A stretch of DNA of 64,000 nt from Candidatus Bathyarchaeota archaeon (GTDB lineage Archaea; Thermoproteota; Bathyarchaeia; Bathyarchaeales; Bathycorpusculaceae): positions 704,001-768,000 of the forward strand of contig CAWHVC010000003.1 in assembly GCA_963832745.1 (NCBI GenBank). Reading direction: 5' to 3'. Of this stretch, positions 4,401 through 41,505 are shown one piece after another (positions within the stretch are counted from its first letter, which is position 1; the number at the start of each line of letters is the position of its first letter). Position numbers and translations under genes: made by a program. A model generated the notes under the pieces. It searched no databases and had not been told where the DNA came from. It saw only the letters and a list, made by a program, of their open reading frames with translations.

Positions 4401-4763
4401 TTAAGTTGTTACTGTTTCTAAAAGTTCTTCGGGTTCAAATGGTTTGGCAACAAATCCTTTGGCGCCAAGCTTTAAAACCTTGTTAATTAAGGCTTTTTGG
4501 TTTAAGGCGCTGACAATAAAAATTTTGGCTGAAGGGTCAACACTTAAAATTTCTTTTAACGCGTCAACTCCTGTTTGAGCAGTATCTATAGGCTTTAACA
4601 CAACATCCAACAACACAACGTCTGGATGTAACGCTTTGTATTTCTTTACTGCCTCTTCTGCACTTGCCGCTTGGCCAACAACGTTGTGGCCTGCGCTTGT
4701 CAAAACCATTTTTAGCACATCTTTGACGTAATCTGAATCATCTACTAAGAGAATGCTAACCAA
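4401..4763 (-). CDS. Stand-alone CheY-like receiver protein
   Basis: LLVDDS acidic pocket, phospho-acceptor LLD, VSA, AKPF; 120 aa. Confidence 0.9.
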   Translation of the reverse strand: MVSILLVDDSDYVKDVLKMVLTSAGHNVVGQAASAEEAVKKYKALHPDVVLLDVVLKPIDTAQTGVDALKEILSVDPSAKIFIVSALNQKALINKVLKLGAKGFVAKPFEPEELLETVTT

Positions 4764-4897
4764 CTTTTACCACTAAACAAGGTTAACTTGTTTTTATATA
4801 AAATAGTTTATGAATTATCAATATCCATTTTTAGCAAAAAATGTTGCAAACGATTCTGAACAGGCGCATACTTGACGTTTAAACTGTTTTTGGCCGT

Positions 4898-5557
4898 TTA
4901 TAGTTTGTCTTTGGTTTGAAGGCTTGCCTTTTTGATCAGGTAGTAACCTTTGGTGTTTTTCCATTCCGTCTTGGCTTTCTCGACAGCAATTTTTTGTTTG
5001 TAAATTGGGCAATCAACCACGAGCGTATGGTATTCCCCCCATTCGCCGATTGGATTGATTTTTTTCTCGGCAACCCTCTGCTTGATTTCGTCAAGGATAT
5101 CTTTGTCTATTACTTTGCCAAGCCAATCCTTGTTAGCGCCAAGTGCAGTGTCAACTTCAATGACTAAACATTTGAAGCCGAGCTGCTGCATCTCGTCAAG
5201 CCCAACAATTGGGTCTTTACCAAACAGGGGAGCATACTGTTTGACGCCGATTGGATCCAAAATCCCCTTGTAATAGTCTAAGTGTTCGGGTGTGGTGGTT
5301 ACGCCTGAAACCAAAAGGTCTGCGCCAAGCTTTTTCAGCGCCTTTCCGACATCTTGAGGCTTTTTTCCGACAACCACTGCAGGAATGCCGGTCGCTTCAG
5401 AAATCAATTCAATCATTTTCTTGTTTTCAAGGTGAGCTTTGCCGCCTGTCTGAATAAACATTAAGTGTTTAACGTTTAAGCCTTCTTTAAGCGCCGAATA
5501 CAATGCGTATACGGAGTCTTTTCCGCCTGAAAGTGAAACAACCACGTGGTCTGCCAT
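4898..5557 (-). CDS. Diphthine-ammonia ligase family PP-loop ATPase (Dph6-like)
   Basis: SLSGGKDS PP-loop and GEWGEYHTLVVDCP C-terminal motif. Confidence 0.75.
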   Translation of the reverse strand: MADHVVVSLSGGKDSVYALYSALKEGLNVKHLMFIQTGGKAHLENKKMIELISEATGIPAVVVGKKPQDVGKALKKLGADLLVSGVTTTPEHLDYYKGILDPIGVKQYAPLFGKDPIVGLDEMQQLGFKCLVIEVDTALGANKDWLGKVIDKDILDEIKQRVAEKKINPIGEWGEYHTLVVDCPIYKQKIAVEKAKTEWKNTKGYYLIKKASLQTKDKL

Positions 5558-5660
5558 TAAGATGCACCCTAAATTTTGATTGCTGTCTTATTGTTTTTTG
5601 GAAAATAAAAACCTACACCCCACAAGCCTGCTGATAACTGCAGAGCGTGTTTTTGCAGGC

Positions 5661-5715
5661 TTTTTCAACATATTAATGAGCGCTTTTTCAACCAATAGCA
5701 CCTACCCCCCTTAGT
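5661..5715 (+). repeat. Arm A of dispersed non-coding element
   Basis: 47/55 nt ungapped identity (hand alignment) to the reverse complement of 39761-39815; core CCAATAGCACCTACCCCCCTT. Confidence 0.85.
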
Positions 5716-5733
5716 ATTTTTGAAAAAGAGAAG

Positions 5734-5767
5734 TGTTTACTAAATTTAGTAAACAAACCTTTACGAG
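5734..5767. promoter_or_regulatory. Palindromic operator-like site upstream of surface-protein gene
   Basis: Perfect 22-bp palindrome TGTTTACTAAATTTAGTAAACA (5734-5755) overlapping a GTAAA-N6-TTTAC dyad also seen at 61185 and 62901. Confidence 0.6.
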
Positions 5768-5782
5768 TACCCTTTTATCCTA

Positions 5783-6607
5783 ATGATTTCGTTTAAACTA
5801 AGTATGCGCAACACAAGCAAAACACTCGCATTACTACTAACACTAACTATCATATTGTCAGGCTTAACTTTGCTGATGATAAAACCTGCAAACGCTCAAA
5901 CAGTGCCATCTGTGCCTGAATTCACTGCAAAACTTGTTGTCCAATCTTATGACACACCCGCAACAACTCCAACATACACAATAGACCCATATTCAGGCGA
6001 ACAAAAACAAGTTTATCCAGGCTCTCCAAGCTACCATGTTGAAAACAAATGGATAGAACTTACCATTAAAAATCAACCGTTCACCCCATACAATGATTCA
6101 GAAGGCAGACAAGTCAGTTTGTACTATAACATTAGGTACAAGGGATATTTTGGAACTGACTGGTCATACGACCCATTTAACCCCGACGGGGTATCTTCGA
6201 AATCCTACGGCGGAATCGATATGACGTATCTTGTTCCTTATACGCCCTCAAACTCTGAATACACTACAATAACCTACAATTTAGGCACATCAGGTATTCC
6301 AACTTACGGAGAACTAGATTTTCAAGTACAAACACAAATAGGCTACATCCAAACAAGCGAAAACTCCTATATTCAAAGAGTCTTCGGTGCAACCTACCAT
6401 TTCACTGGAGAATCAAGTAGTTGGAGCCCCACACAAACAGTATCAATAACTAAAACATCTGACCCAAGTTCTACCTCAACATTGACACCTGCACCAACCC
6501 CTTCCGTACCAGAATATTCTTGGTTTGCAGTCGTACCCTTGATTCTATCTTTGATACCTGTGGCGTTAATTGTTAGACAACGAAAAACCGTCAACAAAAA
6601 CCCGTAG
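5783..6607 (+). CDS. Secreted/surface protein with PEF-CTERM-like C-terminal anchor
   Basis: Signal peptide, PSVPEFT motif, S/T/P linker, VPEY + TM helix + basic tail; start may be ATG at 5804. Confidence 0.8.
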   Translation: MISFKLSMRNTSKTLALLLTLTIILSGLTLLMIKPANAQTVPSVPEFTAKLVVQSYDTPATTPTYTIDPYSGEQKQVYPGSPSYHVENKWIELTIKNQPFTPYNDSEGRQVSLYYNIRYKGYFGTDWSYDPFNPDGVSSKSYGGIDMTYLVPYTPSNSEYTTITYNLGTSGIPTYGELDFQVQTQIGYIQTSENSYIQRVFGATYHFTGESSSWSPTQTVSITKTSDPSSTSTLTPAPTPSVPEYSWFAVVPLILSLIPVALIVRQRKTVNKNP

Positions 6608-6667
6608 GTTGACTCTGACCTACCCCCTATAGGTTTCTGCATAGAACCTCTAATAGGCGCCTAATAG
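6603..6667 (+). repeat. Arm B of dispersed non-coding element
   Basis: 49/65 nt ungapped identity (hand alignment) to the reverse complement of 39686-39750; contains GTAGGT-N8-ACCTAC dyad and CCTATAGG and TAGGCGCCTA palindromes. Confidence 0.8.
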
Positions 6668-6709
6668 GTTGGTAAAAGATTAAAAAATAAAAATTGGGTT
6701 TAGCTTAAT

Positions 6710-7627
6710 TTAGTACATTGAAACTAAATCGTTTGCGTAAGGCAAGCCTGCCCTTGCGCCCATTGCCGTTACGCTTCTGGCTGCTACAAAATTGCCTATT
6801 CTGCCGCACTCGTAGAGATTTATTTTATTGTCTAAGAGTCCGTAGAGAAAGCCTGCGTTGAAAGCGTCGCCTGCCCCCGTGGTGTCAACTGCTTGAACTG
6901 GAAAAGCATCGACTATGAACTGTTCTTGTCCATCCGTAACATAACAGCCTTTTTCGCCAAGTTTAACAGCTACGATTTTGACGCCCATTTCAAGTATGAA
7001 GTCTGCGCCTTTACGGTAGTCAACCTCGCCTGTTAACTCTTCAAGTTCCAAGGCGTTGGGCATAAACAGGTATGAGCTTCTAATCAGGGGTTCTATTGCA
7101 GTAAGGCCTTTTTGGGCATAGAGGGCGCCGGGGTCGAAGCTGACTTTAATGTTTTTTGGCAACATGCCTGCAAGCTTTTTCTGTGCACGGAACGGTCTAT
7201 CGCCAACAAACGATGAAAGATGCAGAAAACTGGTTTGGGCAATATACTCCAGATTGATTTCTCTTGATTCTAAGGTGTCGTTCACGCCGGGGTTAATGTA
7301 TAAGGCTCTTGCGCCTTTCTTATCGACAAACCCCAGACAGACGCCGCTTTTGCCCTTTTTTGAGTGAATAATGCCGTTAGTATCAACACCTTCACTGCTA
7401 AAACAGTCAATTTGTATTTGCCCTTCATGGTCGTCGGCGATTTTTCCGATAAAACCTGCTTTACATCCAAGCCTAGCTAAACCAACCATGGTGTTTGCTG
7501 CTGAACCACCGCACGCTTCGGTGTAGTTTTCGATGAAACTTTCTTCCTCTGGACCTGCAATGCGTTCAACTTTTAGGAGAGTATCAACGTTTAATGCGCC
7601 AAAACCTATTACGTCAAGTTTATTCAT
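6710..7627 (-). CDS. PfkB/ribokinase-family kinase (EhaT-like)
   Basis: GGSAANT and VDTTGAGDAF signatures; ATG directly abuts the upstream stop (TAAATG). Confidence 0.9.
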   Translation of the reverse strand: MNKLDVIGFGALNVDTLLKVERIAGPEEESFIENYTEACGGSAANTMVGLARLGCKAGFIGKIADDHEGQIQIDCFSSEGVDTNGIIHSKKGKSGVCLGFVDKKGARALYINPGVNDTLESREINLEYIAQTSFLHLSSFVGDRPFRAQKKLAGMLPKNIKVSFDPGALYAQKGLTAIEPLIRSSYLFMPNALELEELTGEVDYRKGADFILEMGVKIVAVKLGEKGCYVTDGQEQFIVDAFPVQAVDTTGAGDAFNAGFLYGLLDNKINLYECGRIGNFVAARSVTAMGARAGLPYANDLVSMY

Positions 7628-8554
7628 TTATAACATCTCACTGAATGGGATTTTGTATTGTCCAAGTTTGCCGCCGTAGTTGCCTGCTGAAATGCGTACG
7701 ACGCCTTCAACATCAAGCACTGCTCGGATTCCGGCTTTAATGGCTTTTTTAACTGCATCCTCGTTTACGCCGTCGATGACTAGTTCCGCTATATAGTTTA
7801 CCCCGTCTGGAACAAGGGATTCCTTACCCAACCTTGCTTTGAGCGATGGGCAGTAGACATGGTTAGTTGTGGGACCAATTTCCGGGAAACGGGTTTCAGG
7901 TTTGGAGCCTGCTGAGCAAACATCAAACGACGTGACTACGCCTGGAACCGTGTGCATTGCTGCAAGAGACTTTTTCCCAGCCTCTTTCAGCGCCTGCTTG
8001 GTTGTGCACATAACCCAAAAGTTGCCGCCCATAATACCACGGGCATAGCCGATGTAGTGTTCAATTATAAAGTCTGGAACCATCAAAGGCACAACGATAA
8101 CTTCTCTGCCATAACGTTGCTCTACCCATTCATAGCCGTCGCCGCAGTGACCGACACGCGGCATCATGTCCATTTTGCCTTCTGCGTTAGGCAGGGCGTC
8201 GAAAACTGCTGTGAATGGTTTAACCAAGATATCTTGACGGATTTTGTAAGAAAGCTCTTTCTCAAACTTTTCAAGACATTTCTCAAAGCCCTTTTTCTCG
8301 TTAAGTTCTCCCCAAAACTGTAAGATTGCGCCTACTCTGCCGTCTGGGGTTTCTTTTTCGGTGAGGTAGCGTTCTACTCCTCCTTCTGTTCTGCCAATAA
8401 CGACTGACGGGGTGGCTGTTGAATCGTTAGCTGCCGCAGTCAGTGTTTCCATGTCGTCCGCGGTTACGATTACGCGGCTAAAAATTCCCTGAAACGCTTC
8501 AACAAAGGTATCATCAATAGTAACTTTCTGATTCAATTTATCCAAGTCTCCCAA
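7628..8554 (-). CDS. Formylmethanofuran:H4MPT formyltransferase paralog (Ftr-II/EhaS-like)
   Basis: [39 protein letters not shown]; divergent QDILVKPFT and GHCGDG segments relative to canonical Ftr. Confidence 0.85.
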
Positions 8555-34749: not shown

Positions 34750-35097
34750 ATGGTTGACCATACTGAGGTTAGATCAGAAAACGCGCGAAACGTCATTTTG
34801 AGTTATCAAGACGTAGTTTACTACATTAACCAAGTAAACGTGCAACTTCAAGAAGGCACCGAAAAAGTTAAAGCAACATTTCACGGCAAAAAAATAGGTG
34901 ACAACAAGCCTCGTAATCTTGAAATGGAAATCAGCCAAGCAGCCTACAACGTATTGCTAGATTACGCCAAACTCGACAAGCGTGATATGATGCTTGTTTT
35001 AGAAATCGAGGCAGGCGAAGCTAAATGGTGCTTGATGGATGAGAATTGGTTGAAGAACCAGATAGGTCTAGGTCCAAAACTCAGTTACATAATCTAA
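34750..35097 (+). CDS. Hypothetical protein between cheA and cheW
   Basis: ORF with GGAG RBS; no motif recognised. Confidence 0.7.
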   Translation: MVDHTEVRSENARNVILSYQDVVYYINQVNVQLQEGTEKVKATFHGKKIGDNKPRNLEMEISQAAYNVLLDYAKLDKRDMMLVLEIEAGEAKWCLMDENWLKNQIGLGPKLSYII

Positions 35098-35206
35098 CTT
35101 TTCTTTTTACGGTTCTGAACTGGTAATCAGTAGCTTGTTTTCATAAGCGTCAAATAAGGGATTTCCTCAACTATCTCTTAAGTAGTCCATAATAGGTGTA
35201 ACAGTA

Positions 35207-35716
35207 ATGGTAGATATCGACAGGAAATCCTCAAGAGAAGAAATGCAGATGCTCACGTTCTCGCTTGACAATGTCTATTACGGCGTTAACGTTCATCAAG
35301 TTAGAGAAGTAAAAAATTTTGAAGGCGTCACACCTGTCCCGTACGCTCCAGCATACGTTAAAGGTGTAACAAACCTCCGTGGCGAGGTTCTTCCAGTTAT
35401 TGACTTGCGTAGACGCTTCGGCATCACAGAACAAAAAGAGAATGAAAGCACTGGCATAATGATTATCGTTCAAGACAAACATCCAATCGGTGTTATGGTT
35501 GACAGCGTCATGGAAGTTTTAACCCTGCCAAAAGACGACATTGAAACAAACCCTGACAGCCTAATTGTTGACAAAAACGAGTCAGTGCTCGGCGTAGCAA
35601 AACATGACAAAGACTTAATCATACTGTTGGATCTCATGAAAGTCGTTTCAAAAGACGCTATCAACCGTATTGAAAACACCAAAGGATTTGAAGTAAAAAC
35701 AGAAAAACAGGCTTAG
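35207..35716 (+). CDS. cheW: CheW
   Basis: TPVPYAPAYVKGVTNLRGEVLPVIDL, GVMVDSV. Confidence 0.96.
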   Translation: MVDIDRKSSREEMQMLTFSLDNVYYGVNVHQVREVKNFEGVTPVPYAPAYVKGVTNLRGEVLPVIDLRRRFGITEQKENESTGIMIIVQDKHPIGVMVDSVMEVLTLPKDDIETNPDSLIVDKNESVLGVAKHDKDLIILLDLMKVVSKDAINRIENTKGFEVKTEKQA

Positions 35717-35754
35717 ATAGCCATTTCAGCACCACCACCTTTTGTTGATGTCTA

Positions 35755-36777
35755 ATGGCGCAAATAAGAGTTTTAGTCGTTGACGATTCTCTGCTTATGC
35801 AAAGGGTACTTTCTGACATTTTAAAACTGGACCCTAGAATATCAGTGATTGACACTGCACGTGACGGTGAAGAAGCAATCGCTAAAATCGCGGCGTTGCA
35901 TCCAGACGTTGTAACAATGGATGTTGAAATGCCTAAAATGAACGGTTTAACAGCCGTACGCAGAATCATGGAAACCAACCCTGTGCCTGTGGTGATGATT
36001 AGCGCTTTAACGCAGCACGAAGCTCAACTAACCTTGAAGGCGTTGGAGTATGGCGCTGTGGATTATGTTCCTAAACCTTCAGGCCAAATCTCACTAAACA
36101 TGGACAGCGTCAAAGACGAACTTATTTCTAAAATTAAAACCGCCGCTTCAGCAAACGTAAGACCCATCAAACTAGTCACTGAGGAAACATTGCCGTCTAC
36201 GATGGTAACTGGAAGTGCCAGCGACAAAATAATTTTTATCGCAGCCTCAACAGGTGGACCACCCGCCATCACAAGTGTTCTGCGAAACTTGCCCAGCGAC
36301 ATACCACCAATCCTAATAGTTCAACATATGCCAAAAGGCGTAACCAAACTATTTGCTGACGGGTTAAACCAAGAATGCAAATTCAAAGTGAAAGAAGCCG
36401 AAGAAGGTGACATGATCCAAGAAGGGCTTGCCCTAATTGCCCCCGGGGGTTTACATATGGTTGTAACAAAAGACGACAAAATCGCTCTGTCTAAGGAACC
36501 CCCAGTTAATTATGTGCGCCCCGCCGCGGATGTTACAATGTTCTCTCTTGCAGACGTTTATGGCTCTAAAAACGTAAGTGTAGTCCTTACGGGCATGGGT
36601 TCTGACGGCGCAAAAGGAGTGGTTGCCATCAAAGGGAAAGGTGGATACACTATTGCTCAGGATGAAAAAACCAGCATTGTTTACGGGATGCCAAAAATGG
36701 CTTTTGAAACTGGATGCGTTGACGTTGTTGTTCCTTTGGAAAGAATTCCAAGGGAAATCATTAAGGCTTTAAAATAA
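35755..36777 (+). CDS. cheB: CheB (receiver + methylesterase)
   Basis: VVDDS, MDVEMP, ASTGG, QHMP, LTGMGSDG. Confidence 0.97.
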   Translation: MAQIRVLVVDDSLLMQRVLSDILKLDPRISVIDTARDGEEAIAKIAALHPDVVTMDVEMPKMNGLTAVRRIMETNPVPVVMISALTQHEAQLTLKALEYGAVDYVPKPSGQISLNMDSVKDELISKIKTAASANVRPIKLVTEETLPSTMVTGSASDKIIFIAASTGGPPAITSVLRNLPSDIPPILIVQHMPKGVTKLFADGLNQECKFKVKEAEEGDMIQEGLALIAPGGLHMVVTKDDKIALSKEPPVNYVRPAADVTMFSLADVYGSKNVSVVLTGMGSDGAKGVVAIKGKGGYTIAQDEKTSIVYGMPKMAFETGCVDVVVPLERIPREIIKALK

Positions 36778-36882
36778 TAAACAATTTTTTAATTAATTAT
36801 TTTTGTTATGAATATCAAATTCATAATTTACTTATAAGCAAATGTCCAAAATGAATGGAGACACGCAGGAGCATTAATCAAA

Positions 36883-38382
36883 ATGGCAGTTGAAATCAAG
36901 GATAAATCGGACAAACGAAACCTGGACCTTGAAAAACAGGTTGAAAGATTAAATAATGAAAATAAACGATTACAAGAAGAAAATAAGCAGTTAGAACAAA
37001 AAATTATTGAGGTTTTAAACGACGCGATACAAGGTGCAGAAGGGACCTCAGCCTTGGCAGATCAAACAATTCAAAACGCTGCTAAAGCCGCGGAATTAGC
37101 CTACAACGCAGAACAATCTGCAGTCAAAGTGGCAGAGTTGGCTTCAAACGCGACTGAAGTAGTAAACAAAGTCATTTTTACAATAAAAAACGTGGAAGAG
37201 GCAGCAAACAAAGTAGCCTTAAGTGCAGACGGGGCAACCAAGTCAACAACTAAAGTAGTGGAAATGGGTAAACAAGCTGCTAACGTTTCTAACCAAATGG
37301 CTATCGGTATGCAGCAAGTCAGCACGGCATCTCAGCAGGTATCAACCGGTGCTCAAAAACTTGCAGACCTCTCACAAGATGCAGCTAGAAGTACTGAATC
37401 ACTAAAAAAAGTCATGGATGATGCAGGCTTAATCGCCAGAGAAGCTTCCGTTGTAACTGAAGAAGCTTTAAAGAAGTCAAAGGAAGCTAACGAGAAAGGC
37501 CAAAAAGGTTTAGTGGCAATCGAAAACATCAAAACAAACATTACACGCGTCTCCGAAGCAGTAACTTCAATGGTTAACTCAGTTGAGCAAGTTGGGGAAA
37601 TGGCTAACTCGGTTTCAGACATTGCGGGTCAAACTAACATGCTTGCACTTAATGCTGCTATTGAAGCTGCAAGAGCAGGCGAGGCAGGCAGAGGCTTTGC
37701 AGTTGTCGCTGACGCAGTAAAAGGTTTAGCAGGTCAATCTAAAATTGCTGCGCAATCATCAATTGACCTAGTTAAAGGTATTAAAGACGCGGGTTCCCAA
37801 ACAAGCAACATTTCCACTCAGTCACAGGCCGGAGCAGCTGAAGGCGCCACAGTGGTTTTAGGTGCAATCAAAGAATCTGAAGGTATAGCCATAATCATGG
37901 GTGAAATGACCGGTAAAGTCAACAACTTGACAAACGGTGTGGAACGTGGACTTGACGCGTTAAGTTCAGTAGTTAAAACTATTGAAGAAGTAGCTAGCAT
38001 AGCTGAAGAAAGCTCCTCAGCATCTGAAGAAGCATCCTCAGCTGTTGAAGAACAAACTGCTTCAGCACAAGAAATGGCTGCAATCGCTAAAGATGTTCAA
38101 GGAACCGCCGAGCAGGTTGAACAAATAACCAAAACCGTTGTTGCGGATGCCCAGGAAATGTCAAAGTTGGCTTTAGGCGTTGTTGGTGACTCTCAACAGA
38201 TCGAAGCGGCCACACAAGAGATTCTGTCTCAAGCAAACGCTGTAGGAAGCAACAATAATTTAGCAGTCAGTGAAATCACCGCTATGGCGGAAGCAACAGA
38301 AAAAATGAAAGCTGAAGTTGAGCAAGCCATTGAGCATCGAAAACAGTTGCTTCAAGAGTTTCTTAACAGGAAAAGCAGCTAA
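36883..38382 (+). CDS. Soluble methyl-accepting chemotaxis protein
   Basis: [27 protein letters not shown] hairpin tip; no TM segment. Confidence 0.93.
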
Positions 38383-38504
38383 ATCTAACTTTTTTCTTTT
38401 TGATTTTTCTTTTAACTCGGTTTAGTGTGTCGTTTTTGTGATAGACAAACGCTATTATGGCAAACTTGCCCTCTTACTGAATTAATAAGCAAAGGTGCCA
38501 GTTT

Positions 38505-39068
38505 ATGGGAACAGAAATTAGAACTTTCGCCACACTTAAAGACATAACCGAATACGTTGTTGACCAAACAGAACAACACCGGGCACTTCATGAAGACTAC
38601 AGCCAATGGCTAGGCACGTTACTTCGGGATTCTGAAATCAGTCACAAAAACGATGAATGGTACCAAAAATCTGTTGCCATGCAAAAAACAACTAAATCGC
38701 CTCCGAAGAAGGCTCCAGAAAAAAAGCCTGCTGGCAAAGGTAAAAAAGGCGAAGAAAACTCAATTTGGGTTCCCTCTGGCAGCATAATGCTTTCATCCAC
38801 CGATCAAGGTCAAGCTGAAATCCTATTTGAAGCAATAGAAAAGATTGGCACAAAAATTCAGGACCTTGAAAAACTTAAGGGTTCAATTCAGCAGCTTGAA
38901 CGGATTGGTTTAGGAAAAAACGTTAGTTATATCCTTTACATTGAAGATGATGTGCCAAAAAAGATTGTGGTTCAACCGAAAAATAACAACAGTGATGGCT
39001 CGTTTAAGTATGCTACAGAAATGTCCATTCAAGCGTACGTTAGCGAACCAATCGCAAGCACAGGTTAG
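38505..39068 (+). CDS. Hypothetical protein with Lys/Pro-rich linker
   Basis: 187-aa ORF, helical segments flanking KSPPKKAPEKKPAGKGKK. Confidence 0.7.
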   Translation: MGTEIRTFATLKDITEYVVDQTEQHRALHEDYSQWLGTLLRDSEISHKNDEWYQKSVAMQKTTKSPPKKAPEKKPAGKGKKGEENSIWVPSGSIMLSSTDQGQAEILFEAIEKIGTKIQDLEKLKGSIQQLERIGLGKNVSYILYIEDDVPKKIVVQPKNNNSDGSFKYATEMSIQAYVSEPIASTG

Positions 39069-39216
39069 CCACGAGATGTTCTCAATGCTTCCACTTTTTT
39101 GTGGAGCAGGAATCTACAAAGATTAAATATGAATTAACCAAAAAAATAGTGGGGAATAAAAAATCTGCCCAAAATACGCTGTCTCGGGCGTCACGGTTAC
39201 CGTTCGAATTGATAGC

Positions 39217-39675
39217 GTGCAGGCTGAAAGAACCAGTCAACTGTTCCCCAGTGCAGACATGTTTTTTGATATAAACGCTAAATTGGATGAGCAAAAGAAA
39301 GGCGCAAGCGACACAATTTTAGGCTTCAACCTTGTCATTTCAACTAAACCCAGTATCGTCAAATACTTGGTGGCCGGCACAGTAACTCTTGAAGGGCCAA
39401 CGGCAGACATCAAAAAGAAGCTTGAACCAAACCCTAAAACCAAAATTCCCCAAATACTCTTCGCCATTTATCAAGATGTGTTCAACTCCATCTACATCTT
39501 AGCCTCCATACTAAACGCGCCTTACCCGCCCCCTGACCTACTGCATCCAATGGCAGAAAAAATCCAAATACTTCCTTACACGCCGCCACAGCCGGAAACC
39601 CCGCAGTCAGCTGCAGCAGATGCGACAGAAGTTACTGCCGCTCCTGCAGGGGAAGCGCCAAAAGCAACCGCATAA
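39217..39675 (+). CDS. Hypothetical protein, possibly SecB-like fold
   Basis: Beta-strand pattern followed by a helix and LNAPYPPP; frame is open upstream to ~39160 so the start is uncertain. Confidence 0.6.
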   Translation: MQAERTSQLFPSADMFFDINAKLDEQKKGASDTILGFNLVISTKPSIVKYLVAGTVTLEGPTADIKKKLEPNPKTKIPQILFAIYQDVFNSIYILASILNAPYPPPDLLHPMAEKIQILPYTPPQPETPQSAAADATEVTAAPAGEAPKATA

Positions 39676-39685
39676 AACAGTCAGT

Positions 39686-39815
39686 CTATTTGGATCCTAT
39701 TAGAAACTCGTTGCAGAAACCTATAGGGTGTAGGTAGAAACCAGCCTAAGACTGCAAATCATTAAGGGGGGTAGGTGCTATTGGCTGAAAAACACGCCAT
39801 TAATATGTTAAAAAA
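39686..39815 (-). repeat. Intact copy of the dispersed element (arm A + 10 nt + arm B)
   Basis: Matches 5661-5715 and 6603-6667 in reverse orientation, in the same arm order. Confidence 0.85.
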
Positions 39816-39836
39816 TAGTAGAAAAAGGGTTTTGAG

Positions 39837-40331
39837 TTAAGCTGTAGTTGAGGGCTTGTCTTCCGAAAGACTATCTCTTACTGGGTTGACACGCTTGTTT
39901 TTCCGATACAAAATCAATCCTTCAGCCAAAAACAGTCCCGCAGAAATGCCAGTTATCGGCAACAGGTACATTACCGCCAAGCTTGGAGTCACATTTTGCC
40001 AAAAGAACTGAACCGTCAAGATTGCTGCTTCAACGCTAAGTATGCCAAAGAAAAAGAGGGAATAACAAAGCAGTCGCGGGACAAGGTTTCTGCCTATCCA
40101 CAGGTGACCGCTTATGCTTGTCTTCTCTTTTACTACATATGAGCCGTACACGTTTTTTTCCAGTAAGCCAAGGGACTCAAGTTTCTGCAGTTGTCGATAG
40201 GCGGTGCTTGGACTGCTAAGGTTTGCGCCACGCATAACTTCTCTTGGACCTACAGGTTTGCCTTCCTTAACCACGAAAGCGTACACGTTAAGTGTGTTGC
40301 CTTCAAGTTCTCCACAGTCCAAGTTAGCCAT
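39837..40331 (-). CDS. Winged-HTH protein with two C-terminal TM helices
   Basis: VGPREVMRGANLSSPSTAYRQLQKLESLGLLEK; probable ATG start at 40331. Confidence 0.8.
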   Translation of the reverse strand: MANLDCGELEGNTLNVYAFVVKEGKPVGPREVMRGANLSSPSTAYRQLQKLESLGLLEKNVYGSYVVKEKTSISGHLWIGRNLVPRLLCYSLFFFGILSVEAAILTVQFFWQNVTPSLAVMYLLPITGISAGLFLAEGLILYRKNKRVNPVRDSLSEDKPSTTA

Positions 40332-40338
40332 TGCCTTT

Positions 40339-41505
40339 TTAGCTCCTAGGTGCAATGAATGCTTCTACGCCATATTGGTCAAGCGTGAAAATTTGTTGGT
40401 CACTCAATATTGAGTTATATAGATACCCATCTGTAGTCTTGGTTACTTCTACGTGCTTTAGGTCTGTCACTGTTGAATACGTGTAGGCATAGTTGGTTGT
40501 TCTAGTTTCATATTCTTCAATGTGGCTCGATACTGAAGTATACAAAGTGATTTTTCCTTCTGCCATAGATTCGAGACCTGCATTTGCTCCGACATGCCAC
40601 GTACCTTTTAGATGTATCAGTCTTGATTCATTAGGTTGCCAAACATTGTTAAAGCCGCCTTCGCCTGCCCATATATATTTAAGTGGAACCATAACTGTGT
40701 CGTCTACAGGGGGATGTTCATTGTTGAATTCTGTCTGGTTGGCATAGTGACCCCACATTTCTTTTTCAAAGATGACCTTTTGCATTAGCATAATGTCAGT
40801 TGCCACTGTGTATGGTTGAGTACTATCTACTCGAACTCTTCCTGTGACATCAACCCAAGTCCCGTTGACACAGATGTACTGTGTTGAAGTAATGTTCAGT
40901 CCTGAATCAGTTGGGTAGACATCATGTTTTTCATAAACATGTACTCCTTCAATCCATGTACCGTTTGTCTGCGCTTCTTCTGGCAAAGATGGAACTGTCT
41001 TTGTTATGTTGTTATACGAGTAGGGAAACATTGGCCATTGACCGTCTGGAAGCCATGTTACGTTTAACCATTCATTATCAAGCCATACACCTTCGACAAA
41101 ACCGCTTCCCCCTCCGCTTGTATGTCCTCCACCAGAGGAACCAGACATTCCACCGGCTAAAGAGGGCACAACAGAGACATTAGTGGATGTCACAAAGTCG
41201 ATTAGGCCTATCGCTGCTGGATACTCAGAGTGGTTGGTTACGTTTAAGACGATGTCGTAGTTGACTATTGATAGTGGTATCCCTCCTGAAGAAAAGTTAC
41301 TTGCGTGTTCCTGCACCGTATATTTTGCGTAAGCTGTGTCGACGGTAAAGTCTGCTTTAGGTCCCTGTAGCATTCTTGGGAAGGGCACTATATTTAGTTC
41401 TGCTACAAGTAGGGGTGATGCTGCTGCGATTCCGATTGAAAGCGAAAGAATTGCGCATATGATTATTGTTGGTGTTGTTTTCATGTTTTTCACTGCTGTT
41501 TTCAT
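40339..41505 (-). CDS. Secreted hypothetical protein
   Basis: Signal/anchor helix, Gly-Ser linker, many N-x-S/T sequons. Confidence 0.75.
   Translation of the reverse strand: MKTAVKNMKTTPTIIICAILSLSIGIAAASPLLVAELNIVPFPRMLQGPKADFTVDTAYAKYTVQEHASNFSSGGIPLSIVNYDIVLNVTNHSEYPAAIGLIDFVTSTNVSVVPSLAGGMSGSSGGGHTSGGGSGFVEGVWLDNEWLNVTWLPDGQWPMFPYSYNNITKTVPSLPEEAQTNGTWIEGVHVYEKHDVYPTDSGLNITSTQYICVNGTWVDVTGRVRVDSTQPYTVATDIMLMQKVIFEKEMWGHYANQTEFNNEHPPVDDTVMVPLKYIWAGEGGFNNVWQPNESRLIHLKGTWHVGANAGLESMAEGKITLYTSVSSHIEEYETRTTNYAYTYSTVTDLKHVEVTKTTDGYLYNSILSDQQIFTLDQYGVEAFIAPRS

Follow-up and report, generated by a model that had tools for sequence, protein, structure and literature searches.

The stretch of DNA considered here (the window) comprises 64,000 nucleotides (nt) from a Candidatus Bathyarchaeota archaeon, and it carries two copies of a dispersed repeat assembled from modules that we name A and B. 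In one copy (5661-6667) the modules are split by a gene for a surface protein, and in the other (39686-39815) they lie close together. The source genome (G000) has a size of 3.02 Mb in five contigs (C1-C5), is 99% complete and contains the window as C3:704001-768000. Other genomes of the genus are designated by labels such as G005, G008, G017, G063 and G068, and fetched loci are numbered with the prefix L.

The split and unsplit copies in the window

The split locus is located between a dph6-like (diphthamide-synthase-like) gene (4898-5557, minus strand) and pfkB, a gene for a PfkB-family kinase (6710-7627, minus strand), and its features are collected in Table 1 together with those of the unsplit copy. 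When the two loci are compared by BLASTN, the A modules are 90.7% identical over 54 nt and the B modules 82% identical over 50 nt. Both arms are thus real, beyond chance, as an earlier note on this DNA had held on the basis of 47/55 and 49/65 matches over longer arms; the module boundaries used here are the limits of the family profiles (nhmmer). The same note had placed one gene and one promoter region in ~887 nt between the arms, and this also stands, given that the modules are 908 nt apart and that this interval holds a single open reading frame (ORF). We refer to the gene as the cargo. Its stop codon (6605-6607) was said to lie inside arm B, which is correct for the longer arm but not for module B, which starts 11 nt later.

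The predicted cargo protein has a signal-peptide-like N-terminus and ends with the residues PSVPEY, a hydrophobic segment and a basic tail, an arrangement that we take to resemble archaeal PEF-CTERM sorting signals, for which no model gave confirmation. Translation likely starts at ATG 5804, as in the orthologue from G008. The TATA-like box may be the promoter of a leaderless or short-leader mRNA.

The window contains five strict cores of the form ACCTAC[AC]CCC: three start at 5611, 5700 and 6618, and two more, at 39726-39735 and 39767-39776, belong to the minus strand. This motif was rightly assigned to both arms. The match at ~5611, previously listed as a third core, is not a member of the family and belongs to the upstream region of the dph6-like gene, where it is kept in G008, G068 and G017; modules A and B were not found in the two G017 stretches scanned. 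Of the 61 strict cores in the genome, 56 are in or next to modules, and the five outside compare with 6.2 expected from composition.

Table 1. Coordinates of repeat modules and associated features in the window, and of gene-bearing repeat loci in the source genome
Feature	Position	Strand	Evidence or remarks
Core-like decamer ACCTACACCC, upstream of dph6-like gene	5611-5620	+	outside repeat family
Module A, split copy	5662-5709	+	nhmmer E=2.6e-11; ends in core 5700-5709
Start of insert 'x', as after core 1 in 30 'close' copies (CTTAGTxxTTT...)	5710-5733	+	by eye
Perfect 20-bp palindrome GTTTACTAAATTTAGTAAAC, operator-like, part of cargo gene	5735-5754	+	self-match
TATA-like box CTTTTATCC	5772-5780	+	~25 nt upstream of ATG 5804
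Cargo surface-protein ORF, 274 amino acids (aa)	5783-6607	+	sole ORF between the two modules
5' extension of B	6598-6617	+	holds cargo stop and GTAGGT; similar to 3' part of A by eye
Module B, split copy	6618-6668	+	nhmmer E=6e-16; core 6618-6627; dyad ACCTA-N7-TAGGT
Module B, unsplit copy	39686-39735	-	nhmmer E=7.8e-14
31-nt insert between both cores, unsplit copy	39736-39766	-	
Module A, unsplit copy	39767-39814	-	nhmmer E=3.4e-14
Gene pair on A side of unsplit copy: membrane-anchored helix-turn-helix (HTH) protein (172 aa) and 388-aa secreted protein	39837-41505	-	HTH protein at 39837-40355
Gene-bearing locus	window split locus		A, gene, B
Gene-bearing locus	C5:299895-300916		A, frameshifted gene, partial A + B
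Gene-bearing locus	C3:285242-286463		A, insert, B, D, gene, B
Gene-bearing locus	C2:387819-389037		A, cut B, D, inverted gene, partial A + B
Gene-bearing locus	C3:667123-669203		A, insert, B, D, Kelch-like surface protein, partial A + B

A repeat family with a fixed module order

Searches of the source genome with iterated nhmmer profiles of A and B (E <= 1e-3) identified 88 A modules (~48 nt) and 123 B modules (~51 nt), and every A was paired with the next co-oriented B. In 31 of the resulting pairs the modules overlap by 6-10 nt and have one common core, ACCTACCCCC, and another 30 pairs have 16-137 nt between the modules and two cores. Five further pairs are 267-1118 nt apart, one of them being a pairing artefact. 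This initial pairing leaves 22 A and 58 B alone; after the five distant pairs are split, there are 150 loci, including 27 solo A and 62 solo B. The element had been described as present once intact and once split, a picture that this number of loci replaces.

Modules are combined according to a strict grammar. In the sorted match table, A precedes B on one strand in 61/61 pairs that are no more than 150 nt apart, and no A and B within this distance are reversed in order or differ in strand. Close neighbours of other kinds are limited to a convergent A-A pair (C1:548103/548195) and a divergent B-B pair (C5:122146/122181), and three tandem B-B pairs have a period of 62-75 nt. A third module, D (~170 nt), is represented by 24 copies in the source genome, none of them in the window, and 15 of the 24 directly follow a co-oriented B. 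A locus is made up of A, one to three B units and sometimes D; all modules share one strand, and their order (A, then B, then D) never varies. The proposal that the two arms are halves of one element is supported by the constant order of the close pairs, but not by the many solo modules or by G005, where every match is to B.

Module D has no Rfam match. An example is found at C3:667329-667569 (L068:2129-2369). The module holds a hairpin, GGGC-ACTAGCATG-GCCC, which in some copies has undergone a two-sided change to GGGT...ACCC, and it ends with a TATA-like stretch followed by GGCGTTAAAAAAGCC. D may thus encode a small RNA or act as a promoter module. When the short inserts between two cores are inspected by eye, their first bases resemble those of a B unit (CTTAGTG.TTT) and their last bases the sequence that precedes a B core (GGCTGGTTTCT), and they may be internally deleted B-like units.

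Copies are nearly all intergenic and occur in either orientation. On the basis of crude longest-ORF gene calls, the gene pairs that flank the 61 A-B units are convergent in 15 cases, divergent in 15 and tandem in 31, and show no orientation bias. Copy orientation tracks neither GC skew (P=0.43) nor local gene strand (P=0.79); the corresponding value for AT skew is P=0.049, and a runs test for strand clustering gave P=0.08. Some copies are found near 5S rRNA genes. In G068 such a gene lies between B and D modules (L070:1333-1452), and in the source genome, where 5S genes are located at C1:95268-95387 and C3:54541-54660, one is ~1 kb from a solo B with D (C1:94166) and the other ~600 nt from C3:55262, a point at which synteny with G008 is broken and G008 carries a copy.

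Sequence anatomy of the modules

Both modules consist of conserved blocks with variable stretches between them, the blocks being TTTTCAACAT, TAATG, CCAATAG and ACCTACCCC in A, and ACCTACCCCCTATAGGTTTCTGCA, TCTAATAGG and AAATAGG in B. Every B unit begins with the core ACCTACCCCC, which together with the bases that follow forms the dyad ACCTA-N7-TAGGT. Among the 97 B copies with a complete 5' end, this dyad is found in 49, with arms of only 5 bp, and a relaxed version, CCTA-N6-8-TAGG, is found in 68. Both the arms and the spacer belong to the best-conserved columns. A different geometry, GTAGGT-N8-ACCTAC, had been put forward from the split copy as that of a recombinase site, and it is confined to that single copy among the 97.

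We found no excess of pairing with covariation among all column pairs of the 88 A and 123 B copies, and RNAalifold returned no consensus fold on either strand for 29 copies with a shared core. Rfam gave no match in the window at the gathering score, nor, with E values of up to 1 allowed, in any of 10 copies. An RNA gene was rejected on these three results. An 8-bp stem (TTAATGGC/GCCATTAA) is confined to some A copies. The centre of A occurs genome-wide in two forms, one T-rich (GGCTTGTTTTTCAGCC) and one A-rich (GGCTTGAAAAAGCGTC), each roughly the reverse complement of the other, such as would result if the loop of a small hairpin were inverted, and orthologous A copies may differ in the form of their centre, for example at L025.

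Distribution and rate of change in related genomes

Matches were found in 26 of the 81 genomes of the genus that were drawn for this comparison (E <= 1e-4), and the distribution is patchy, ranging from 0 to more than 100 candidates per genome. At least 29 candidates were seen at first look in 12 genomes (G000, G005, G008, G042, G052, G063, G065, G068, G071, G072, G074 and G082), although in G005 all 27 of 27 matches represent B alone. Sequences related to B are also abundant in environmental DNA. Over window positions 6619-6719 the summed contig depth reaches 60-340 in marsh and marine-sediment metagenomes vs. <36 in every other bin. B is accordingly widespread in these metagenomes and may disrupt assemblies there, a practical warning for assembly and binning.

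The closest relative is G008, whose dph6-like and PfkB proteins are 95% and 87% identical to those of the source genome. Of 15 copies fetched from G008 with their flanks, 13 have a copy at the corresponding flank in the source genome, and the other two were scored neither way. Synteny extends to more distant genomes, in that one G005 locus spans a solo B of the source genome and syntenic copies also occur in G063 and G068. Orthologous A modules of G000 and G008 are 0.67-0.98 identical, and 7 of 13 rank sixth or better among the 88 A copies; A of the split copy is 98% identical to its orthologue and ranks first. Orthologous B modules have identities of 0.66-0.94 and rank anywhere from 5 to 121 of 123, and hence are often no closer to each other than to a random copy. 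For comparison, identity at 4-fold degenerate sites of three neighbouring genes is 0.60-0.68. Given that the copies are syntenic in the sister species and exceed the identity of 4-fold sites, they are old residents, kept or homogenised above the neutral level, of which the B side turns over.

Units have been gained or lost between cores since these species separated. Five of ten orthologous pairs comprise one copy with a shared core and one with an insert, the difference being exactly the sequence from one core to the next, and in two further pairs B is absent from the source genome. Among the loci examined there was no orthologous pair of sites with and without a whole unit in which both flanks are kept.

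Surface-protein genes between and beside modules

The cargo matches no Pfam or NCBIfam family. It has 132 homologues (E <= 0.001), the named ones of which come from 'Candidatus Bathyarchaeota' or 'Bathyarchaeia archaeon', and the family is present in 66 of the 81 genomes, including repeat-free ones. Fourteen paralogous loci in the source genome encode proteins that are 29-53% identical to the cargo, and 6 of the 14 adjoin a repeat copy vs. 263 of 3168 genes overall.

Upstream of six paralogues, a similar palindrome and the motifs CCTTTAC and CTTT(T/A)ATC lie between the repeat and the start codon. Because palindrome and promoter motifs are shared in this way, the cargo gene appears to carry a promoter of its own, and A is not predicted to serve as one. 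The palindromes are of the TGACT..TTAGTAAAC type, and together with the motifs they look like a common operator or promoter that could define a regulon.

In three to four loci of the source genome, a surface-protein paralogue is located between A-side and B-side modules (Table 1). The edges of the cargo vary by locus and are 10-25 nt or more away from the cores. They fall 12-23 nt past core 1 and 10-20 nt before core 2, or else at the end of D, inside A or past the end of B. Partial A matches are found directly upstream of the gene-side B at three other loci and are lacking at the split locus. The paralogue at C5:299962-300779 (L066) is split into two ORFs by a frameshift and is probably a pseudogene.

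We compared the arrangement of modules with 2000 random placements, scoring each case wherein an A-containing unit is followed by a solo B on the same strand at a distance of 150-3000 nt. Eight such pairs are observed where 2.5 are expected (P=0.0035), and three of them hold cargo paralogues and one a Kelch-like surface protein. Neighbour pairs are co-oriented in 13 of 14 cases, and their number is not raised (14 vs. 20 expected). When the best cargo homologues of 29 other genomes were inspected, modules were found to flank two of them, namely the G008 orthologue and one G063 locus.

Gene-sized differences at module edges

Relatives differ at module edges by gene-sized stretches, beginning with the split locus itself. 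In G008 this locus consists of A, the orthologous gene, a second gene for a secreted NosD-like protein, and B. The NosD-like gene is placed exactly between the stop codon of the first gene and the stretch that precedes the B core, and the junction between the two genes holds no core. The intergenic region from dph6 to the cargo is 87% identical over its whole length, and positions 5710-5733 are invariant between the two genomes, with the cargo starting downstream of 5733. In contrast to the dph6-like and PfkB proteins, the cargo protein is only 44-50% identical to its G008 orthologue (window 5804-6607 vs. L013:2068-2829). At the DNA level, the first ~220 nt are 81% identical and the last ~115 nt 90%, and the middle cannot be aligned. 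Such a mosaic would fit either allele replacement or strong diversifying selection.

The NosD-like gene is preceded by a palindrome (GTCAAGAAAGTTTGAC) similar to that of the surface-protein paralogues. It stops at a TGA before a potential hydrophobic anchor and basic tail (LTVAIAVIVTVTLAAVFIKRKQQ; L013:3886-3960), and this TGA could represent a premature stop, a read-through codon or a recent break.

A B module directly after pfkB is also present in G008, G063 and G068. In G063 it belongs to an unsplit copy (A, a 15-nt insert, B), and in G068 to an A-B copy with a shared core. Beside the dph6 promoter, G068 has a decayed, unsplit A-B with a shared core and no gene, as recognised by eye, and this copy is the unsplit, gene-less counterpart of the split A side. 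Two other loci show further gene-sized differences: at C3:226733 the copy has a 418-aa surface protein next to it, and at C3:844047 a 1.4-kb gene replaces B. The expectation that relatives would have filled and empty sites agrees with the gene-less copy in G068 and the second gene in G008, but several sites that seem empty are products of inversion, as described below.

Inversions and rearrangement endpoints at copies

Endpoints of inversions and other rearrangements lie at repeat copies in three congeners, G008, G063 and G068. The ~33-kb segment between the two oppositely oriented copies of the window (6669-39685) is inverted and partly missing in G068. There, an 11.9-kb locus (L065) corresponds to window positions 4910-5622, then to 25523 down to 24531 and 12702 down to 6686, and continues through an A-B copy into 39763-40351 and onward to 43238. 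The dph6-side copy of the same genome is followed by reversed pieces of window 34943 down to 29035, the first of which runs from 34943 down to 34786. The closest relative G008 keeps the arrangement of the source genome: its two copies share a contig, are oriented as in the source genome and lie ~31.6 kb apart; the unsplit copy is 84% identical to its G008 orthologue over 144 nt.

Other copies mark similar events. At the pfkB-side copy of G063, the B-side flank with pfkB is connected to the sequence that borders the C3:299047-299189 copy of the source genome on its A side. The same genome joins C3:307182 to window position 5619, and these points are 24 and 43 nt from copies in the source genome, on their A-side flanks. 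In G008 the flanks of the C3:323.5k copy have been separated, each being beside a copy, and one of them is joined to the flank of the C3:667k copy. The crossover point within such hybrid copies could not be placed by eye, the modules being too alike and too short.

Several candidates for excised or simple sites were rejected in light of these arrangements. The unsplit copies beside pfkB in G063 and G068 were considered as empty sites left by excision, and inversions between copies explain them better because the segment is inverted in G068. A G063 site that matches C2:387819 was likewise rejected as an excision, given that the paralogue is kept beside the left flank in that genome. The locus at C5:299895 was discarded as a clean gene difference, since 38 kb separate its flanks in both G063 and G068, and in G008 the flanks are not even on the same contig.

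The surroundings of the unsplit copy also differ among genomes. The gene pair for the HTH protein and the 388-aa secreted protein lies between dph6 and pfkB in G017 (L014:1255-2824), and in G068 (L065:8976-10790) it borders the A side of an A-B copy that separates it from pfkB. The pair moves as a unit, occupying three contexts in three genomes. Adjoining the unsplit copy on its other side is a stretch (~34950-39680) that is not seen at the corresponding place in G068 and looks accessory. It includes an ORF (36883-38382) that is chemoreceptor-like, judging from its translation alone, and two small ORFs (38505-39068 and 39217-39675) that have no Pfam match.

Search for a mobilising enzyme and for junctions in reads

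The window had been reported to be free of recombinases and transposases, and indeed neither PF00589 (tyrosine recombinases) nor PF01797 (Y1 transposase) has a match there, other transposase families not having been searched. In the whole source genome PF01797 has 0 matches, whereas 6 of 14 control genomes match. PF00589 gives nine matches, and the genome holds 5-7 tyrosine recombinases. The intact genes among them are at least 4.6 kb from any copy, and one broken remnant is 387 nt from a solo B.

Three recombinase families were tested in the 81 genomes, and none follows the 12 element-rich ones. A Zn-ribbon integrase family is present in 64 of the 81 genomes. Close relatives of a 323-aa recombinase are confined to G063, G041, G015, G067 and G035. 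A 294-aa recombinase occurs in G008, G063 and G068 as well as in several repeat-free genomes, and is absent from G071, G082, G074, G005, G065 and G072. The check for a co-occurring integrase or HUH transposase that the earlier note had recommended thus yielded, among the families searched, no enzyme that tracks the repeats. Moreover, no terminal inverted repeat common to the copy ends was found in the five copies tested. This, along with the lack of a Y1 transposase, speaks against the anatomy of a miniature transposable element with inverted repeats (MITE) or repetitive extragenic palindrome (REP) that had been suggested.

For window positions 5000-7300, the share of sampled words present in any one sequencing run does not exceed 0.18, and no run is recorded as RNA. 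Contigs from four DNA runs were aligned on window positions 4700-7700. Joints from 5714, 5716 and 5721 to 6618, 6619 and 6622 were considered as empty junctions of the split locus, and were rejected because the contigs are short, with 22-36 nt on the shorter side, and because two of the four have 18 or 39 extra letters between the joined parts. They represent other, insert-bearing copies of the family.

Comparison with known systems

REPs are palindromic hairpins tied to the gene for a Y1 (IS200-like) transposase, the REP-associated tyrosine transposase (RAYT). Like REPs, REPINs and the bacterial interspersed mosaic elements (BIMEs), the archaeal repeats are abundant, short and extragenic, form mosaics and often lie at the 3' ends of genes; unlike them, they have no hairpin covariation, and the source genome has no PF01797 match. 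Integron attC sites, phage attachment (att) sites and the cores of tyrosine recombinases have a dyad around a 7-nt spacer, and genes are found between directly repeated sites. A dyad with a 7-nt spacer, in 49 of 97 B copies, and at some loci a gene between two directly repeated cores are seen in the archaeal family as well, but its cargo has no fixed boundary and has its own promoter, to judge from the motifs upstream of it, and no intact recombinase is adjacent and none of the three families tested co-occurs.

Neisseria's intergenic mosaic elements (NIMEs) offer the closest parallel. As described in the part of the source available to us (PMC1797815), dRS3 dyads (ATTCCC-N8-GGGAAT) separate RS modules in these arrays, which occupy syntenic places in related species, vary in unit number and adjoin surface-protein genes that are far more diverged than their neighbours. 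The mechanisms put forward in that part are a role as substrate for homologous recombination or as target of a specific recombinase, and such arrays are stated there not to have been seen outside Neisseria as of 2007 (PMC1797815). Within the limits of that description, the archaeal family likewise has a short dyad that punctuates longer, variable modules, forms syntenic arrays with varying numbers of units, and, at the split locus, adjoins a diverged surface gene (44-50% identity for the cargo vs. 87-95% for its neighbours). The two differ in that there is no sequence similarity and in that one belongs to an archaeon and the other to a bacterium. Furthermore, the archaeal dyad has a 5-N7-5 form with a C-rich spacer, and A, B and D have a fixed order and orientation in place of many RS families. 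The NIME model as given there also needs natural transformation, which is not known for this archaeon.

BOX elements of the pneumococcus consist of boxA, a variable number of boxB and boxC, and the portion of the account on which we draw characterises them as mostly stable between strains and 'currently dormant' (PMC3049150). Measured against that portion, the archaeal family shares a fixed module order, a variable middle module, roughly 100 or more intergenic copies and the lack of a clear mobilising enzyme. The terminal inverted repeats, target-site duplications and stem-loops of BOX were not found in it, and BOX, unlike the archaeal repeats, is not reported in the same portion to bracket genes or bound inversions (PMC3049150). 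The repeat family is best filed with the mosaic intergenic repeats of the NIME and BOX kind, by architecture and not by homology. Among the literature matches listed, there is no report of such repeats in Bathyarchaeia, including any as a MITE.

Interpretation and alternative explanations

On balance, we slightly favour the view that the copies are NIME- or BOX-like mosaic repeats acting as dispersed recombination substrates. In this model, recombination between oppositely oriented copies would invert the intervening DNA, recombination or slippage between repeated cores would add or remove units, and genes at module edges, above all those of one surface-protein family, would be gained, lost or replaced. 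We infer that the repeats themselves cause the rearrangements and gene exchange and that general homologous recombination, not a dedicated recombinase, supplies the activity, and there may be a selected benefit, such as surface-protein variation. Several observations weigh against this model. The loci compared with G008 were chosen for holding copies, and the 3 clean gene-sized differences among ~13 may be no more than the genome as a whole would show. Copies are not enriched for surface-like genes as a general class beside them (20/263 vs. 170/3168, P=0.11), and in the element-rich genomes G074 and G042 the best cargo homologue has no flanking module. General homologous recombination works poorly on modules that are 50-90 nt long and 75-90% identical. 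Finally, conservation above the neutral level fits a cis-acting function equally well. The explanations overlap, in that the spread of the repeats, their conservation and their effect on the genome are separate questions.

Foremost among the alternatives, though in our judgement an unlikely one, is that a recombinase of the tyrosine or another type, encoded elsewhere, performs crossover at the ACCTA-N7-TAGGT dyad at the junction of A and B. Circles would integrate and excise between direct cores and in this way fill or empty sites, and inverted cores would flip segments. The frequency and conservation of the dyad accord with this, as do the five orthologous pairs that differ exactly by the stretch between two cores, and the genome does encode tyrosine recombinases. 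The two sides of the element evolve separately, orthology being kept in A while B is often swapped, and the inversion endpoints fall inside copies that are short for homologous recombination. However, the cargo edges lie off the cores and differ by locus, the arms of the dyad are short, slippage can also delete between 10-nt direct repeats that are 30-70 nt apart, and the two genes of G008 meet at a junction without a core. Nor, apart from the broken remnant, does any recombinase lie within 4.6 kb of a copy, and the three families do not track the 12 rich genomes. The att-like cassette site proposed at the outset finds partial support. A gene between the halves does recur, relatives do differ and the two copies of the window are linked by rearrangement, but the proposed dyad, a fixed boundary and a recombinase were not borne out. 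In its most far-reaching version, which we hold to be improbable, ~150 ACCTA-N7-TAGGT sites would be used by a candidate recombinase that flips multi-kb segments and shuttles surface-protein gene units. If true, this would constitute programmed surface variation, and an archaeal, chromosome-wide counterpart of an idea that was proposed, but is not known to have been proven, for dRS3 and NIMEs in Neisseria.

Alternatively, the modules may be selected as cis-acting elements, such as protein-binding arrays, boundary or terminator elements, or small RNAs, with recombination as a side effect; we regard this, too, as improbable. An ATAGG motif recurs at steps of ~11-12 nt, and conserved blocks with variable spacers would suit such a role, as would the excess of orthologous identity over 4-fold sites (98% vs. 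60-62% for A at the split locus). Genes that enter A on the same strand have their stop codon no more than 60 nt before A (-14 to 60) in 37 of 45 cases, with the remaining 8 stops 67-673 nt before A, and A has two T5 runs. The TATA-like end of D, its hairpin and the change from GGGC/GCCC to GGGT/ACCC point the same way, as does the great abundance of B in marsh and sediment metagenome contigs. Yet the copies show no preference for gene orientation (15/15/31), which argues against a promoter or terminator role, they have neither an RNAalifold fold nor an Rfam match, orthologous B copies can rank as low as 121 of 123, and the dph6-side copy of G068 has decayed. Least probable of all, in our estimation, is a non-autonomous transposon of the MITE or REP type with its enzyme in trans, of which the split copy would be a version with captured cargo or the parent of the short forms. 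A past burst of such an element would leave a high number of intergenic copies, in either orientation and with a patchy distribution in the genus, and the graded inserts between cores (16-137 nt) do look like a deletion series. Besides the lack of a shared terminal repeat in the five copies tested, of hairpin covariation and of a Y1 transposase, the finding of 13 of 15 G008 copies at the same place in the source genome gives no sign of movement since the species split, and modules occur separately, as B does throughout G005. In addition, cargo paralogues are 30-53% identical and their flanking modules 75-90%, meaning that gene and arms were not copied as a unit, and the cargo family is also found in repeat-free genomes.

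Significance

Bathyarchaeia are abundant in sediments and mostly uncultured, and how their genomes vary is almost unexplored. The family described here marks the ends of inversions that range from 33 kb to several hundred kb and brackets fast-diverging surface-protein genes, and therefore offers a way into the study of genome plasticity and of variation at the cell surface in these archaea. An archaeal counterpart of the neisserial arrays would show that the mosaic-array architecture arose more than once, and would provide a second system for asking if recombination simply happens to such arrays or if they serve it.

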